From Escherichia phage vB_ESM-pEJ01, in sequence record OP114734.1: a stretch of 64,000 bases of DNA; one strand, given 5' to 3'. This document shows positions 17,121-34,143 of the stretch, one piece after another. The notes under the pieces were generated by a model. It worked only from the letters and a program-made list of their open reading frames with translations. It did no database searches and was not told the origin of the DNA. Position 1 is the first letter of the stretch. The number at the start of each line of letters is the position of its first letter. Both the position numbers and the translations under genes were made by a program.

Positions 17121-17603
17121 TTTTGCTAAATCATTGCAATATTTTAGTGCCTTAGTTTGAAATTCTGAGCTGTTAAGTTCTTCATAACGGTCATAATCAC
17201 CGTTTAATGCTGCCTTTCTTGCTTCTTGCTCTATCTGCATGTCAGACATGATAATACAGCGATCCCGCGCTTTCATCTTCTCAAGTTGTATAGACTCTTC
17301 TTTCTGCTTGCGCAATTCTTCTTGACGCTTCTTTTCTTCTTGTGCTTTCTCTTCCCGCGCTTCTTTGATTGCCTCCTTGAACATCTGCGTTTGTGGTGCT
17401 AAACCAACTTTAACTCGATCTACGTCTCGACGTTCCATTTTAGAAATAAAGCATGATTCGATCTGATCATCACTTGCATATGCTGCTTTACATTCACGAA
17501 GCAAGAAAACCGGATCTGATTTAGCATTCATCATAGCTTCCATGTTGGCACAACCAGTAAGCATGAATGCAGCCGCAAGACCAATCAGTTTAATCATTTT
17601 CAT
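17118..17603 (-). CDS. Predicted lipoprotein (161 aa)
   Basis: Signal peptide with lipobox LTGC; charged coiled-coil-like middle. Confidence 0.6.
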   Translation of the reverse strand: MKMIKLIGLAAAFMLTGCANMEAMMNAKSDPVFLLRECKAAYASDDQIESCFISKMERRDVDRVKVGLAPQTQMFKEAIKEAREEKAQEEKKRQEELRKQKEESIQLEKMKARDRCIIMSDMQIEQEARKAALNGDYDRYEELNSSEFQTKALKYCNDLAK

Positions 17604-18424
17604 TTAGTCACCTCACCGAAAATTGTAAATTGTCTACGATTCTCATCGCCGAAAGATTCTACTACGTCGTTTACCTTGACGCAAGTCCCTCGCGGTAAAA
17701 TTACTTCACATTCGCAAGGGTTCCATGCAATTGACCCAACAACAAAACCTTTATGATCTTTTACGTCAATTACCCATGATACATTACAAGAATGTTGCAT
17801 CTTTCCGGTCATTGATTCATATCGATTCTCACAATAAAGGCTAGTGCTGTTTGATAGCCATCCTCCAAAGATGATCGGTGTCATGCTGGTAGATACAAAG
17901 TTTTTAAAGGTAAACTCCTTATCTTCAATGATACGCTCTATTGTCTGAATGTCAAGATGTTGACCTCGATAAAGAGTACCGTTTAACTTTTCGGTTTTAT
18001 CCATGACACAATCCATCAAATCAACAATCTCTGATATCTCATCGGTCATGTCTTCTTCCCCTAAGAGAGCACCATTTACCCATTCGTATTGTTCAGACAC
18101 ATAATCACAGATTGCATTATATTCTGCTGGGGTTATGTTGTTATGTTTGTAATGTTTGAATACATTATCTCCAAAGTCTTCGGAGTGTACTTCATACATC
18201 ACATTAATGATTTTCTTGACAAATCCATAATCTTGTGTCTCGCGCTCAAGGAAGCGGATAACCTTCACATAATCATCAAAGTTAATCTGATCGCTGATCA
18301 TCTCAGTGATCATGTAACCATTAATCCCCTCAATGTCATATGTTTCGATGTAATTATCCATACGTTCCATCATTGATTCGCGTGATTCTTCTGAAAGACG
18401 AAAATCCTGTAATTTCTTGAACAT
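17600..18424 (-). CDS. ADP-ribosyltransferase, Alt/Mod-like (274 aa)
   Basis: R-S-ExE triad: LYRGQ, STS, ECEVILPRG; paralogous to the Alt catalytic domain. Confidence 0.7.
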   Translation of the reverse strand: MFKKLQDFRLSEESRESMMERMDNYIETYDIEGINGYMITEMISDQINFDDYVKVIRFLERETQDYGFVKKIINVMYEVHSEDFGDNVFKHYKHNNITPAEYNAICDYVSEQYEWVNGALLGEEDMTDEISEIVDLMDCVMDKTEKLNGTLYRGQHLDIQTIERIIEDKEFTFKNFVSTSMTPIIFGGWLSNSTSLYCENRYESMTGKMQHSCNVSWVIDVKDHKGFVVGSIAWNPCECEVILPRGTCVKVNDVVESFGDENRRQFTIFGEVTK

Positions 18425-18502: not shown

Positions 18503-20554
18503 TTACATTTTAAATTTATCTGGCATTGCGTCTACAGATACCAGATCAGCGATAAGCTGACGTAGAGTTGCCTTATCTGCTTTCTTACGTTCGGTTTTAG
18601 CTTCGCTAATGAAGCTGGAGAAAGACAGGTCAGAAGCAGGTTTAATAACACCTTCACGGATGAATGCATCACCGTCCGCGATCATCTCGCCAGATTCTTG
18701 TAATGCTGCCAGTTCATTTTTGTTCATAATATGTGCCTCAATGTAATAAGTTTCTTGTGAATCAGTCGATGCCGTGGCACTAGTTACCGTATCAAAGGAT
18801 AACACAACACCGCGAGGAAGTAAAATCTCGCATTCTTTGTAAGCAAATGCTTTGTTACCTACTGGCAATACAGGGATGTTTTCCGCGCCAGCAATGGAGA
18901 AAGCAACATTAGCGCCACCTTCACCGCGAGAGCCAGCCATAGAATCAACACCAGCAACGGCACTAGCCACGTTTGCATTCCAGCCGCCAAAAATGTTAGG
19001 TGCAAGGGAAGTGCTCACATAGTTTTTAAAGTAAAACGCTTTTTGCTTACGTGCAGTTTCCCACATTTGCGACCGGAAGTCCATACCACGATACAGAATA
19101 GTACCCGGATCAAGTTTAACGCCATAGTTGGAGAAGGCATTATCCAGTGCATCGCACATCTTGACCAATTCTTCTGGATCTGCGATGCCTTCAAACTCTT
19201 CCAGCTTACGGTCGGTTAGGAAGTTGTTCATATTGATGTATGCTGCATCGGCATATTCGCTCAACACAAAACCTTCCGCGCCTGGCAGATCAAGATCAAT
19301 ATCTGCCATCATTTCACCCATGTTGCTAGCAATTGCTTCAAACATACCGGACGCAACATTACGTAGGGCATCGGTTTTAATCTGGGTGATATGACTACGC
19401 AGCATTTCAGCTTTTACATCTGCTGGCATAGACTGGTCTACTCGATCCATTGCCAGGGCGGTGATCTTGTTTTCGAATACTTCCTCGCTCATGATTTCTT
19501 TTAAGCGTTTGACCGAGGCTGCGATAACTTCCGCAGACAACGGATCATATTGATCCTGAACTTTTACCAGTTCGCTTACTGCGTATTTTGCATCGGCTTC
19601 GCTTTCAAAAATAGTACGCATGAAACCATAGCGAGTGATAATATCACTTGTCCAGTCATTCAGAGAACGGGCGGTTGAACGTTCTAAGGCTTGACGGTCA
19701 ATCAGAGTATTAAACTGTTTCTTAGGTTCGGCTTCGGTGATATCTTCTTCCGGTTTAAGATTAATTTTTTCTGGATGATTCACATAGTCGCTGTTATAGG
19801 TCGCTTGAGTTTTCAGCATTTCTTCTTTAGTCAAACGAGATTTAGCCGCTACGCGTTGTTCCGCTTCCGCGTTTCGTTCTTCTTCTGACACAAGACTAGC
19901 CGCATACGCTTCATCTTTAGTCAGAGATTCACCGGTAGCCTTAGATACCCAGCGATCACCTAAATCACTTTCTACTTTAGTGAACAGGGAATCATCAAGT
20001 TTAATCCCTTTAATCTTATCAATCGCCATACCGCGACGCTTGACAACAACTAAAGCGATCTTTTTGCTGGTCATTACTTCCTGCTGGAATACTTCAAACT
20101 TCGGTGTACGACGCACCAAACGCTCTATAACGCGCTTAACCAGTTCGGTCTTACCTTTCATGCGGGATACGTTAAAACGGAACATAACAGCGTCTAATTG
20201 CGCTTTACGGGCTGTTTCCATAACCACATCAAAAGCACTTGCCATAACTGCAATCGGGTTATCACCTAGACCATTTTTAAGCTGTACAATACGACCGCTT
20301 TTGTTCATTTCGCACAGTACAACATGTGCGGTCTTGTCACCCATACGAATGATTTTAGGTGTTTTGTTGGTGAAGTTACAAAGACGGACAATCACATCTT
20401 TATCGCGTGTCTGTACTGCAAAAAGCTGTTTAGGATTCTGCTTAGGCTTTAAGCACTGTACCGGGGCAATACTACCAAAGTTTTCTTCCTCTTCCGTCAA
20501 CAGCCATTTCTCGAAAGATTCAATCATTAGATCGTCGATTTCTAAGTTAAACAT
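18503..20554 (-). CDS. alt: Alt ADP-ribosyltransferase (virion-packaged RNAP modifier)
   Basis: 683 aa (T4 Alt 682 aa); C-terminal ART motifs LYRGMD, STSLAP, ECEILLPRG. Confidence 0.85.
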   Translation of the reverse strand: MFNLEIDDLMIESFEKWLLTEEEENFGSIAPVQCLKPKQNPKQLFAVQTRDKDVIVRLCNFTNKTPKIIRMGDKTAHVVLCEMNKSGRIVQLKNGLGDNPIAVMASAFDVVMETARKAQLDAVMFRFNVSRMKGKTELVKRVIERLVRRTPKFEVFQQEVMTSKKIALVVVKRRGMAIDKIKGIKLDDSLFTKVESDLGDRWVSKATGESLTKDEAYAASLVSEEERNAEAEQRVAAKSRLTKEEMLKTQATYNSDYVNHPEKINLKPEEDITEAEPKKQFNTLIDRQALERSTARSLNDWTSDIITRYGFMRTIFESEADAKYAVSELVKVQDQYDPLSAEVIAASVKRLKEIMSEEVFENKITALAMDRVDQSMPADVKAEMLRSHITQIKTDALRNVASGMFEAIASNMGEMMADIDLDLPGAEGFVLSEYADAAYINMNNFLTDRKLEEFEGIADPEELVKMCDALDNAFSNYGVKLDPGTILYRGMDFRSQMWETARKQKAFYFKNYVSTSLAPNIFGGWNANVASAVAGVDSMAGSRGEGGANVAFSIAGAENIPVLPVGNKAFAYKECEILLPRGVVLSFDTVTSATASTDSQETYYIEAHIMNKNELAALQESGEMIADGDAFIREGVIKPASDLSFSSFISEAKTERKKADKATLRQLIADLVSVDAMPDKFKM

Positions 20555-28125: not shown

Positions 28126-28602
28126 TTATTTTTCTTGATGCTCGCGCTCGTACTTTTCGAAATAAAATTCTACTGGCTGGTCATGAATTGACAGCAAGCC
28201 AAAGCGTTTAGCCGCTCGCAATCCCATATTGCGCTGAATGTACTTCTGGAAGTTCTCGCGTATACACTTACGCCAGTATTCTAAGCCCATACAGCTTTTA
28301 TAAAGATTGCATTGCACACACGCCGGATTCATGTTATCAAGTATATCATGTTCCGGTTTATGCATTCCTACAACCTTATACTTCCACGATCCATCATCAT
28401 TACGGGCAATTCGTCCATTTTCATCATAGACTACCTTTGAGCGTCGCAATACTGGTTTGATGTGGTCTGCGTGCCAGCGATCCCCTAGTTCCTCGCCACA
28501 ATAGGCACAACGTCCACCGTATTTCATTTTCAGGATCTGGCGTTGCTCTTTCTTTGACAATTTTTTAGGTTTAGGGGCTTTCGCCCCTTCATTATCACAC
28601 AT
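28126..28602 (-). CDS. HNH endonuclease (158 aa)
   Basis: CAYCGEELGDRWHADHIKPV...CVQCN zinc-HNH motif. Confidence 0.7.
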   Translation of the reverse strand: MCDNEGAKAPKPKKLSKKEQRQILKMKYGGRCAYCGEELGDRWHADHIKPVLRRSKVVYDENGRIARNDDGSWKYKVVGMHKPEHDILDNMNPACVQCNLYKSCMGLEYWRKCIRENFQKYIQRNMGLRAAKRFGLLSIHDQPVEFYFEKYEREHQEK

Positions 28603-30097
28603 CGAATACCTCTTTTACTGTATTTGCAGTGGTCTTGTCGTAGCGAATACGTTTGATGATTGGGAGAAATAAAGAGAACTCCGGTTCATCTTCTTTACGT
28701 GATTTGCTGCGGATATACCCGTTGCATGTCATCTCAATGACTTTTCCGATCAGGTTATGCCGATCAGCCCATAACATTTCTCGGTCAAGTTCATTTCGAC
28801 GATCGAACGGAATTACACGTTCAATACCATCATCACATTTTTCGGTTGTAGTGTCGGTTAATCCCGATCCGGTGTTAGTCATCATTCGTCCGCACGCACT
28901 ACGGACAGTAAAACCGCCTACCTTATTAGGATCTTTACTATGCGGATATACATCAACAATTTCAGCGTCGAAGTCAATCACTTCTTTAAATTTAACCTGG
29001 TCTTTACTACGGCGATCTTCAAATACACCATGTAAATTTTTAAGGATAATACCTTCTAAGCCCATGTTTACATAGCGATGATATACTTCGCGAGCTTCAT
29101 CGATATTGTTAACTACAGTGTTTTCGATTATCTGAACACGAGGATCGTTAAGTTCTTCAACAATCTGTTTTAGTTCTTCGAATCGATCTTTATATTGCTT
29201 AGTTGCTTTCTCGTTTCCGTAATACACATCACGGTCGATAACATCCCAGACAGTATAAACAATACATTGGGCTTCTTCTTTTGGAATAGTTCCTTTAAGT
29301 GATTTGTTGAGGATACCATTTCCGGTCTGACGATCTGCAACAACGGATTCTTTCACTGCTTCCGCTACTGGCGTTAATGGCATTTCCTCTTCTTCAAATA
29401 TCCATGACAGAGTACCATCATAAACGCTTTCAACGAAGTTCTGCGCTGGTGTTTGCGAAAGGGTAGGCATATATACCAATTCGCCATCTAGAACAATTCC
29501 ACGGCCTCGTAGACGCTCTAAAACCGCAAACAAATCATCAAGTCCCTGATAGGTATTACCTGAACGGGTATAGATTGCTAATGTTTCCCCGTCAATATCA
29601 GCCATACCACGAGCGCCATCGCTTTTAAGTTGTGCATACGCCGGATACTTGATATTAGCAATAGTCTTATCAGAACATGACGATGCAAGGTGGCACGGCT
29701 GCTGGGGGATCAGTTTCTTCCATACCTTGTTTGCAGTGGTAGCGGAACAACCGCATTCCAGATCACGATTCAGGACCATCATTGCAACTTTAGCATCATC
29801 TTCTGACAAGCAAGTCAGAGTATCGGTAACTAGCTGTAATGCTGCGTTACCAGTTACTTGACGCGTGGCAAGTTTATTTTTAAAGACCTGTAATGCACCG
29901 GATAAAGACAATACAGACGAATAACGCGATGGTTTATCGTATTTCTTTACGCCAAACGTAACCTGTTTGCAATATGCCAGATAAAAGCATTCTTTCAGAG
30001 TTTCATTGCTTGCGGATTCTTTCAGGATCTTTTCTTTCAGCGATGTTTTGTCGGTCGCTGCAAGCTGGTTAATGATATTAAGAATTGACATTTTCAC
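28595..30097 (-). CDS. 30: ATP-dependent DNA ligase gp30
   Basis: KxDG adenylation motif (AQLKSDGARG); aligns with T4 ligase over its length. Confidence 0.92.
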   Translation of the reverse strand: MKMSILNIINQLAATDKTSLKEKILKESASNETLKECFYLAYCKQVTFGVKKYDKPSRYSSVLSLSGALQVFKNKLATRQVTGNAALQLVTDTLTCLSEDDAKVAMMVLNRDLECGCSATTANKVWKKLIPQQPCHLASSCSDKTIANIKYPAYAQLKSDGARGMADIDGETLAIYTRSGNTYQGLDDLFAVLERLRGRGIVLDGELVYMPTLSQTPAQNFVESVYDGTLSWIFEEEEMPLTPVAEAVKESVVADRQTGNGILNKSLKGTIPKEEAQCIVYTVWDVIDRDVYYGNEKATKQYKDRFEELKQIVEELNDPRVQIIENTVVNNIDEAREVYHRYVNMGLEGIILKNLHGVFEDRRSKDQVKFKEVIDFDAEIVDVYPHSKDPNKVGGFTVRSACGRMMTNTGSGLTDTTTEKCDDGIERVIPFDRRNELDREMLWADRHNLIGKVIEMTCNGYIRSKSRKEDEPEFSLFLPIIKRIRYDKTTANTVKEVFDV

Positions 30098-30557
30098 CTC
30101 GTTTTGTTAAACGTTCACGAATATCATTGAGGATACTACAAAATTCCGATTCAGTCAATATAGTCTTTAACGGATCAGTTCCACCTATGCTATGACGTAA
30201 TTTCTTATTTCCGGTAGCGAGTAATGCTTTACAAAATTCTGGGTTATTCCGTGCCATCGTAACAAATGCCAGATGTACCAGTCTGTAATAATGCTCACTC
30301 ATTCGATGAATCTGGCGACCCTGAAAATATAACAGGTGATTCTCAATCTTTTCAGTTCTTCCGGTTCTTTTTGCTTTGCCACCGTGCATCAAAAAGATTT
30401 CTCTTTGTCTCTGGGGGTTCTTAAATCTTAGCCCCTGTAAAAATCCTTCTGTGCTGTTAATATCGCAACCAAATAAACGGAATGGTCTTTTATTGAAATT
30501 ACTCAATTCACCCGATGGATAAGGTCCACCCGCATAGATATCAATTTCAGAAGTCAT
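30078..30557 (-). CDS. NADAR (YbiA/DUF1768)-like protein
   Basis: N-terminal GPYPSGELSNFNKRPFRLFGCDINSTEGFLQGLRF resembles the NADAR signature. Confidence 0.5.
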   Translation of the reverse strand: MTSEIDIYAGGPYPSGELSNFNKRPFRLFGCDINSTEGFLQGLRFKNPQRQREIFLMHGGKAKRTGRTEKIENHLLYFQGRQIHRMSEHYYRLVHLAFVTMARNNPEFCKALLATGNKKLRHSIGGTDPLKTILTESEFCSILNDIRERLTKRGENVNS

Positions 30558-30711
30558 TGAAACTAATCTCGCTAATTAGAGAGAACGGATCATAATCGTC
30601 ATTAGGAATATCGATAGTAATCGAATGAGGATTTACCCATACACCAAACTGGCCTTCTTCGGTGAATACTTCGGTATGGATTTCGTGGATGTTTACATTC
30701 ATAGTTTTCAT
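30547..30711 (-). CDS. Hypothetical small protein (54 aa)
   Basis: ATG start; stop overlaps the NADAR-like gene start; below the ORF-track cutoff. Confidence 0.35.
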   Translation of the reverse strand: MKTMNVNIHEIHTEVFTEEGQFGVWVNPHSITIDIPNDDYDPFSLISEISFNDF

Positions 30712-30794
30712 AATAAAATTTCCTTAATAATCAATAACTTACAAAATCATATAGCCAAAATATAGGCGGGATTATTTCCCGCCGTTTAAAATCA

Positions 30795-31154: not shown

Positions 31155-31772
31155 TTATTTATATTTCGCGACCTTTGGATTTCGCCGCAGACCGGAATGT
31201 ATTTGCGCTATACAACAATAAGAAACATTAAACATATCAGCTATAATTTGCTTCTTAACTTTTCCTTTAAGCCGCATTATTTCTTCGACTTGCGCATTTG
31301 TCAGTTTTGCCCGTGAGTGGTTTTCACCGACATTGTTATTGAGTCCAGTTCTAAATGAATGTCTCATATTTTCTAGTAAGGTTACTATTTCTAGATTCCA
31401 CACATAATTGCAGGTTTTTACACCATTGATGTGATTAACCTCAAGTCCGGTAACGTCTCCTAGAAATGCATTTGCTACAAGTCGATGTATCTTTTCGGCT
31501 TTAACTGAGATTTTACCATTGTCGTTTTGTTTTGACAATGTTGAATAATAATATCCATATCGGTCTAAAATTGGTTTTATTATTTTACCAGCACGTTTTT
31601 GTTTTACGAGCTTAATATTACCGGGAGAAACTTCTCTATAAAATTCGATACTTCGGTCAATAGATCTCAACCTACCATAATTAGAGATTTCATACCACGG
31701 ATAACCTACAGCTTGTCTCCATTCTTCCGGTGCTGGTAATATGATATTATCATCTTTTGTTTCCATTGTCAA
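31155..31772 (-). mobile_element. Homing endonuclease gene (NUMOD4 plus HNH, 205 aa)
   Basis: WYEISNYGRLRS (NUMOD4) and HINGVKTCNYVWNLE (HNH); inserted between 31 and cd-side genes. Confidence 0.7.
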
Positions 31773-32609: not shown

Positions 32610-32813
32610 TTAACCGTATACGCGAAAGTATTCTACTGATCCGTCGCTATACTGTTTTACATTGAATGTATTCACACCATGATTATTTCTCATGATGACA
32701 TATACACTGCGACGTTCATCGCTAAACGGCATAACTGGCGCTGGTTCAATATCAACACTAAAACCACGTTTAGCAAGTGCTTCGCCTAATTGCTTGATTT
32801 TATCGGTAAACAT
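32610..32813 (-). CDS. Hypothetical small protein (67 aa)
   Basis: ORF between pseT and cd. Confidence 0.5.
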   Translation of the reverse strand: MFTDKIKQLGEALAKRGFSVDIEPAPVMPFSDERRSVYVIMRNNHGVNTFNVKQYSDGSVEYFRVYG

Positions 32814-33691
32814 TAAAAGTCTCCGTAGTTAACCTGAAAACATTCTACACCAATTGAGCGGTACATGTCAACCACTTGATCACGGTCATCTACCGCCAAA
32901 ACAACATGATAACGCGGTGCAATTTCAGAGAAGAAAATCTCTTTCTTCACTTCATGATCAGGACGACGATCATTAGTTTCACGTTGAAAGTGATCACTCG
33001 GTTCAATACCCTGTTCACGCAACCATTGCAGAGTATCTTCTTCGCAAACATCCTCACGCCCTGAGCATGTAATGATACGATAACCATTATCACGATACAG
33101 TTTAAGCATTTCGATCACTTGCGGACGCGGTTTATCTTCTTTGACCTTTGTCCAGTCAAACGGATGACGACCGCCCTTATCCGCTAATGTTCCATCAATA
33201 TCAAAGATCACTGCCTTCGGCAGCATGGTATTCGGTTTGTATACTTCTTGACCCATATATTCCTGGGTCAGATAAAATTGGTTACGCAAATGAGAAAGTG
33301 GAATTGCTTTCTCGCCTCGATAGAAATTACGTTTCTTTAGTGTCTCAAATGATTCATTGAACACTTGTTCAGTATACACCGCGTTAAATTCTTTTGCAAG
33401 TTCTTTGTAGAATACACGATGTTTTTCTTTCAGGTTAGTATCAGAGATAATGATACTTAATCCGCGTGATAGAGTCTCACGAGCAATCATTCTCTGAATA
33501 GACTCTACCAGTTTTTCTTTTTCCTTAGTATACTTGTATTTCAAATGTGAGTCAACACCAAACAACATAAGACGAAGATCATCGCGATTCACATTACGAT
33601 AATTACTAAACCGTTTACACGTTTCCATAGCCCATGTAGTTTTACCGGACCCAGAACAACCAACGGTTAAAATCACTTCACATTTCGGCAT
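32813..33691 (-). CDS. pseT: Polynucleotide 5'-kinase / 3'-phosphatase
   Basis: Walker A GCSGSGKT (kinase) and DIDGTL (HAD phosphatase); ATG chosen at MPKCEVIL. Confidence 0.9.
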   Translation of the reverse strand: MPKCEVILTVGCSGSGKTTWAMETCKRFSNYRNVNRDDLRLMLFGVDSHLKYKYTKEKEKLVESIQRMIARETLSRGLSIIISDTNLKEKHRVFYKELAKEFNAVYTEQVFNESFETLKKRNFYRGEKAIPLSHLRNQFYLTQEYMGQEVYKPNTMLPKAVIFDIDGTLADKGGRHPFDWTKVKEDKPRPQVIEMLKLYRDNGYRIITCSGREDVCEEDTLQWLREQGIEPSDHFQRETNDRRPDHEVKKEIFFSEIAPRYHVVLAVDDRDQVVDMYRSIGVECFQVNYGDF

Positions 33692-34143
33692 TATTTCTCC
33701 TTCGGTTTGCACCGTTCCTCATTAAGTTCTTTTCGATAATAACACATGATCAACTTACTTTCAAGTGTATATCTCTTAATATCCGCAAGCCAGACTCTAA
33801 ATTTTTGGGAGTCCTCCCACGACATAGAAACTCTAGGTTTACCGTCTATTGTATCCACTTTCAGGTCAATGTCAACTTTTTCTATTGGTGCTGGTAGTGA
33901 AGGATGTAATTTCGGTTCCTGTGAATAATGGTCCAGTGTACACGAAGAAAGCGCAAATACAATAGGCACAGCGAATACATGGATTATGGCGGTCTGAAAA
34001 TTCTTATGTGCTTTCTTAAACATCCAGTGTATCGCAAAAATTGAAAACACCATCAGGATAATAATGCTTGCACCTATCCCCAGATAATCAACCAGATTAA
34101 AATTGCTTATCTGCTCTTGCGTAGGCAATATTTCTATGCTCAT
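33691..34143 (-). CDS. Membrane protein; candidate o-spanin lipoprotein if translated from internal Met (about 34023)
   Basis: Hydrophobic N-terminus, then MFKKAHKNFQTAIIHVFAVPIVFALSSC (lipobox L-S-S-C); adjacent to pseT where T4 has pseT.2/pseT.3. Confidence 0.4.
   Translation of the reverse strand: MSIEILPTQEQISNFNLVDYLGIGASIIILMVFSIFAIHWMFKKAHKNFQTAIIHVFAVPIVFALSSCTLDHYSQEPKLHPSLPAPIEKVDIDLKVDTIDGKPRVSMSWEDSQKFRVWLADIKRYTLESKLIMCYYRKELNEERCKPKEK

Follow-up and report, generated by a model that had tools for sequence, protein, structure and literature searches.

A probable Krischvirus ortholog of the T4 anti-DarT factor AdfN (gp30.3) in Escherichia phage vB_ESM-pEJ01

The resistance of T-even phages to the toxin-antitoxin defense system DarTG1 was mapped to gene 30.3, which was consequently renamed adfN for “anti-DarT factor NADAR” (Johannesman et al., Nat Commun 2025; PMC11825919). 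AdfN-T4 adopts a NADAR fold, and the purified protein strips ADP-ribose from DNA modified by the toxin DarT1, while it is inactive on the thymidine modification set by DarT2 (PMC11825919). Deletion of adfN rendered the T4 strain GT7, which carries unmodified DNA, sensitive to DarTG1, and the variants E36A and K43A as well as the C-terminally truncated allele of the RB69 type gave only partial rescue (PMC11825919). AdfN-T4 does not neutralize DarT1 in uninfected cells and reaches its full effect only in T-even infections (PMC11825919). In further in vitro studies, T4 gp30.3 hydrolysed ADP-ribosyl-guanine both on DNA (PMC11125620) and on RNA (PMC11833690), with guanine adducts being processed and cytidine adducts not (PMC12945103). 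Here, we describe a gene for a stand-alone NADAR protein of 159 amino acids in a stretch of 64,000 nucleotides (nt) from Escherichia phage vB_ESM-pEJ01 (OP114734.1), called the window in the following. Most probably, this gene represents the ortholog of T4 30.3 (adfN) in Krischvirus and encodes a minimal NADAR-fold N-glycosidase undoing the modification of phage DNA by host DarT1.

A phage clade of NADAR proteins had already been recognized by bioinformatics (cited in PMC11543638 and PMC9503650). Only the T4 protein and two further, unrelated phage NADARs have so far been found to hydrolyse ADP-ribosyl-guanine in DNA and to rescue phage growth on DarTG1 hosts (PMC11825919, PMC11125620). Outside of phages, the fold is known from DarG1, the NADAR antitoxin of DarTG1 (e.g., of E. 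coli C7 or G. lovleyi; PDB 8bat), and from YbiA-type proteins (PF08719; PDB 2b3w), with E. coli YbiA being annotated as riboflavin-intermediate N-glycosidase, unlike the protein described here. Both YbiA and the T4 NADAR fail to protect cells from DarT1 (PMC11125620). The active site features a Glu touching the distal ribose (E43 in PnNADAR, E88 in the NADAR of E. coli C7, E36 in T4 AdfN) and a Lys coordinating the ADP-ribose phosphates (K50, K95, and K43, respectively; PMC11543638, PMC11825919). A third residue on the last strand is Glu in YbiA-type proteins, Asp in the DarG1 type and His in phage NADARs (PMC11543638, PMC11125620, PMC12945103). Family, fold, chemistry and the anti-DarTG1 role of this type of gene are hence already known from work published in 2023–2025, from Pfam and from the label 30.3 given to the ortholog in phage JSE.

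The open reading frame (ORF) starts with ATG on the minus strand (Table 1), and its translation includes the N-terminal segment which an earlier note, made from the letters of the DNA alone, had read as NADAR-like. Judged by its relatives, it is not a chance reading frame, since tblastn retrieved related sequences from 1509 phage records and an exhaustive profile search matched 1694 representative proteins at E values of up to 0.001. The protein scores 129.6 bits against PF08010 (Phage_30_3, “Bacteriophage protein GP30.3”; cutoff 36), covering profile positions 2–138 of 138, and matches phrog_652 with an E value of 5.5e-45. In BLASTP, its residues 3–150 align to residues 2–152 of T4 gp30.3 with 38% identity over 151 residues (E 1e-28), reaching the last residue of the T4 protein. 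Both proteins thus share family and end-to-end similarity, and both consist of the core NADAR domain only (~150–160 amino acids).

The predicted structure agrees with this assignment. An AlphaFold2 model built on an input alignment of 12 sequences reached a predicted local distance difference test score of 93.6 and a predicted template modeling score of 0.88. As in T4 AdfN, the C-terminal helix, which the weak RB69 allele lacks, is intact and comprises residues 136–157 of the model. The top three matches of a Foldseek search against the PDB were E. coli YbiA (2b3w), the P. nicotianae NADAR with ADP-ribose (8bau) and the G. lovleyi NADAR (8bat); all other matches had a probability of 0.05 or less. 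Moreover, hhalign aligned a profile of 52 family sequences to E. coli YbiA over 131 columns with a probability of 92.4% (E 5e-7). Searching the solved structures by sequence was of little use, as profiles from 12 and 52 sequences retrieved YbiA alone (E ~0.05), and the superfamily was therefore settled by fold comparison and hhalign. The NADAR assignment proposed in the earlier note holds on both counts, and the protein is a member of the NADAR superfamily belonging to the phage (gp30.3) clade.

Other assignments were considered and rejected. The general NADAR model PF08719 gave only 16.7 bits, below its gathering threshold of 35.1, because Pfam places the phage clade in a separate family, PF08010; this score, together with a His located at or beside the site of the YbiA-family Glu, rules out the YbiA-type subfamily. 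A DarG1 antitoxin is likewise ruled out. Unlike DarG1, the gene is an “orphan” flanked by a 54-amino-acid ORF and the ligase gene, with no adjacent gene for a DarT1 toxin. The protein consists of the core domain without N-terminal extension (159 vs. 219–234 amino acids), carries His in place of the catalytic Asp and shares 11–14% sequence identity with DarG1 in structural alignments. The NCBIfam entry “NADAR family anti-phage protein” was matched with 14.2 bits at a cutoff of 240, which excludes membership in that bacterial family, and a match to DltA in a single-sequence phmmer search of solved structures (E 7e-4) was spurious.

The active-site residues were mapped by sequence alignments, the broadest comprising 168 domains (the best 150 of the 1694 profile matches, earlier matches and the window protein). 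E37, at the position of the ribose-contacting Glu, is invariant in alignments A1 and A2, and Glu is found in 160 of the 168 family domains. The same applies to H122, the phage-type His, which is also invariant in both alignments and present in 156 domains. The alignment thus bears out these two residues expected of a phage NADAR, and the protein shows the same Glu and His signature as T4 AdfN. At the position of the phosphate-binding Lys (T4 K43), however, the window protein carries R44. A Lys occupies this position in 157 of the 168 domains (~93%) and an Arg in six. The basic side chain is kept in the window protein. Among these domains, the combination of Arg with an intact Glu and His is limited to the window protein, P0001 (its 97% cluster), P0002 (a 69%-identical relative) and P0145. 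According to the alignments, R44 is a lineage-specific, conservative substitution of a minority, and it is the sole feature in which the protein departs from the characterized enzymes.

Apart from the window protein, some metagenomic family members showed deviating sites, and multi-domain proteins occur among the relatives. In P0013 (480 amino acids), three stretches matched, and one NADAR-like repeat is degenerate and devoid of Glu and Lys, while P0031 and P0054 carry Gln or Ala at the Glu position. Judging from these residues, the NADAR domains of all three proteins may be inactive or binding-only.

Gene order also links the gene to T4. The 4-kb stretch around 30.3 is 97–99% identical to 59 phage records, including ECD7, KFS-EC and JSE. 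The JSE record is classified as Straboviridae, genus Krischvirus, with a taxonomy line that names no subfamily, whereas that of T4 includes Tevenvirinae. Among the 59 Krischvirus records, 30.3 is full-length and 95–100% conserved, with the JSE protein being 98.7% identical. The neighborhood is of the T4 type, comprising pseT, cd.2, cd, 31.1 and 31, followed by 30.3 and 30 (JSE annotation), and the position of 30.3 between gene 31 and gene 30 concurs with the annotations of both T4 and JSE. This location, E. coli as host and the family Straboviridae are common to the window gene and T4 30.3. As a difference to T4, genes 30.2 and 30.1, which lie between 30.3 and 30 in T4, are absent in this phage group, and 30.3 therefore directly adjoins the ligase gene. 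Homology, predicted fold, residue pattern, C-terminal helix and synteny are in this way all established for the window gene.

By analogy with the T4 ortholog, the encoded protein would be an active, guanine-specific enzyme with an anti-DarTG1 role. Expression is assumed to be early, as in T4; the gene lies on the same strand as the surrounding replication genes (dCMP deaminase, ligase). The enzyme would bind ADP-ribose that is linked to guanine through the N2 amino group, with E37 and H122 predicted to flank the distal ribose and R44 to hold the pyrophosphate. Hydrolysis of the bond between ribose and base could then restore unmodified guanine in the phage DNA, and replication would continue in spite of the host toxin DarT1. 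The reversal of DarT-type guanine ADP-ribosylation of phage DNA, as suggested in the earlier note, has in fact been demonstrated experimentally for T4 gp30.3/AdfN (PMC11825919, PMC11125620).

Several points weigh against a simple transfer of the T4 function to this gene. Identity to the assayed T4 enzyme is only 38%, the phosphate-binding Lys is an Arg, and Krischvirus lacks the T4 neighbor genes 30.2 and 30.1. AdfN-T4 itself depends on T-even infection for full effectiveness (PMC11825919), and a full-text literature search found no paper dealing with DarTG and Krischvirus together. The variant K95R of the E. coli C7 NADAR retained hydrolysis of ADP-ribosyl-guanine in vitro, but the rescue of cells from DarT1 was lost (PMC11543638). 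Since this exchange separated hydrolysis in vitro from protection in vivo in a DarG1-type NADAR, it is conceivable, albeit rather unlikely, that the fixed Arg marks a Krischvirus enzyme with a shifted substrate or partner requirement, e.g., another ADP-ribose adduct, a host ADP-ribosyltransferase other than DarT1 or independence of the T-even co-factor seemingly needed by AdfN-T4. The same result could be taken to indicate an attenuated or inactive relic in the Krischvirus lineage without a real role in counter-defense, in line with the rarity of Arg at this position. Considering the remaining in vitro activity of K95R and the full-length conservation of the gene across the Krischvirus records, we regard such a loss of function as very improbable; moreover, the 69%-identical relative has retained R44 along with all other key residues, a pattern that speaks for selection of a functional protein.

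An alternative option could be an enzyme with the same fold and chemistry serving another physiological substrate, possibly RNA with ADP-ribosylated guanine or soluble derivatives of ADP-ribose stemming from host immune systems or RNA repair. The T4 NADAR is able to act on ADP-ribosyl-guanine in RNA (PMC11833690), and Iyer and co-authors, arguing from gene context before the experiments, saw low-molecular-weight ADP-ribose derivatives as the main targets of phage NADARs (PMC9503650). The change from Lys to Arg at the phosphate-binding site might also alter ligand preference, and RNA-repair genes are found within ~4 kb, namely pseT (polynucleotide kinase) and, just beyond according to the JSE annotation, rnlA (RNA ligase). 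This proximity, however, reflects ordinary T4-type synteny and not a specific association, no soluble substrate has been demonstrated for any phage NADAR, and the sole in vivo phenotype of the family is directed against DarTG1 (PMC11825919). We therefore consider a different main substrate unlikely.

The earlier note had further implied a link of the protein to two ADP-ribosyltransferases of the phage itself. Both genes are indeed present in the window, each with a PF03496 domain, and are located ~10–13 kb away on the same strand; the larger one (683 amino acids) is Alt-like according to the JSE annotation, the other is a stand-alone enzyme of 274 amino acids. In the loci examined, 30.3 and these genes are neither adjacent nor co-conserved as a pair. 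Alt- and Mod-type enzymes as found in T4 ADP-ribosylate arginine residues of proteins. NADARs, on the contrary, have so far been shown to act only on base adducts (guanine, for some also cytosine), the T4 enzyme on guanine only (PMC12945103). The published substrate is ADP-ribosyl-guanine set by host DarT1, and no connection to the products of phage transferases was found, so that this part of the note is not supported and a role in reversing or limiting the phage's own modifications appears very improbable. Overall, another substrate, a relic and a link to the phage's own transferases are each less likely than an adfN ortholog acting against DarT1.

With respect to this adfN ortholog, the reading from sequence alone correctly singled out a counter-defense gene. 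An adfN-like annotation would be possible in ~60 Krischvirus genomes, and resistance to DarTG1 could be predicted for these phages. In this context, the natural variant with Arg in place of Lys represents a ready-made test of the importance of this residue in a phage background.

Table 1. Features of the window around the 30.3 (adfN) ortholog and further genes referred to in the text.
Feature	Position	Strand	Basis
274-amino-acid stand-alone ADP-ribosyltransferase (PF03496), followed by a 161-amino-acid ORF without Pfam family	17600..18424	-	Pfam
683-amino-acid ADP-ribosyltransferase (PF03496), Alt-like	18503..20554	-	Pfam; JSE annotation
158-amino-acid HNH endonuclease gene	28126..28602	-	also annotated in JSE
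Gene 30, ATP-dependent DNA ligase	28595..30091 (500-amino-acid ORF 28595..30097)	-	PF01068, 79.9 bits; phrog_114, E 1e-141; JSE annotation
Gene 30.3/adfN ortholog, 159-amino-acid stand-alone phage NADAR, predicted guanine-specific nucleic-acid ADP-ribosylglycohydrolase	30078..30557	-	ORF list and raw sequence
H122 (codon CAT), phage-type His replacing YbiA-type Glu/DarG1-type Asp	30192..30194	-	alignments
R44 (codon AGA), at the position of T4 K43/PnNADAR K50/C7 K95	30426..30428	-	alignment with T4 gp30.3
E37 (codon GAA), equivalent to T4 E36/PnNADAR E43/C7 E88	30447..30449	-	alignment with T4 gp30.3
Conserved 54-amino-acid gene, no assigned function	30547..30711	-	ORF; phrog_15277, E 2.5e-41; annotated coding sequence in JSE
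Terminator-like GC-rich hairpin GGCGGGA-AATAA-TCCCGCC followed by a T run, TATATTTTGG	30765..30783	-	consensus scan; between gene 31 and the 54-amino-acid ORF
205-amino-acid NUMOD4 and HNH_3 homing-endonuclease gene	31155..31772	-	
pseT, polynucleotide kinase	32813..33712		

Transcription proceeds from gene 31 via the 54-amino-acid ORF and 30.3 to gene 30, all on the minus strand. The NADAR gene consequently lies upstream (5') of the ligase gene, and the description “downstream of ligase” in the earlier note is correct in plus-strand coordinates only. If the ligase gene is taken to begin with the ATG at 30091, as in the JSE annotation, its start and the end of 30.3 share 14 nt. At the other side, the short ORF does overlap the start of 30.3, as had been noted before, with its stop falling 11 nt inside the 159-amino-acid ORF, and both genes are therefore probably translationally coupled. 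The 54-amino-acid ORF had no match in Pfam or NCBIfam, and a comparison with 30.3', its positional counterpart in T4, revealed no similarity, so that the small upstream ORF is a further difference to T4. As T4 AdfN seemingly needs a further phage factor, small neighbors such as this gene might be candidates.

The hairpin preceding the short ORF resembles an intrinsic terminator and may, by its sequence, mark the upstream edge of a unit consisting of this ORF, 30.3 and the ligase gene. Terminator-like sites in the region did not exceed the count expected from shuffling, and the hairpin is a pattern match only; promoter-like sites were no commoner in the region than in shuffled sequence, and we claim no promoter.

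Two further genes of the neighborhood encode endonucleases. The HNH endonuclease gene directly follows the ligase gene and overlaps its end, while the gene with NUMOD4 and HNH_3 domains is located between gene 31.1 and gene 31, a position comprising only ~40 nt in JSE. In many close relatives, only 84% of the 4-kb query was covered, in 2–3 pieces, which is consistent with presence or absence of this mobile insert.
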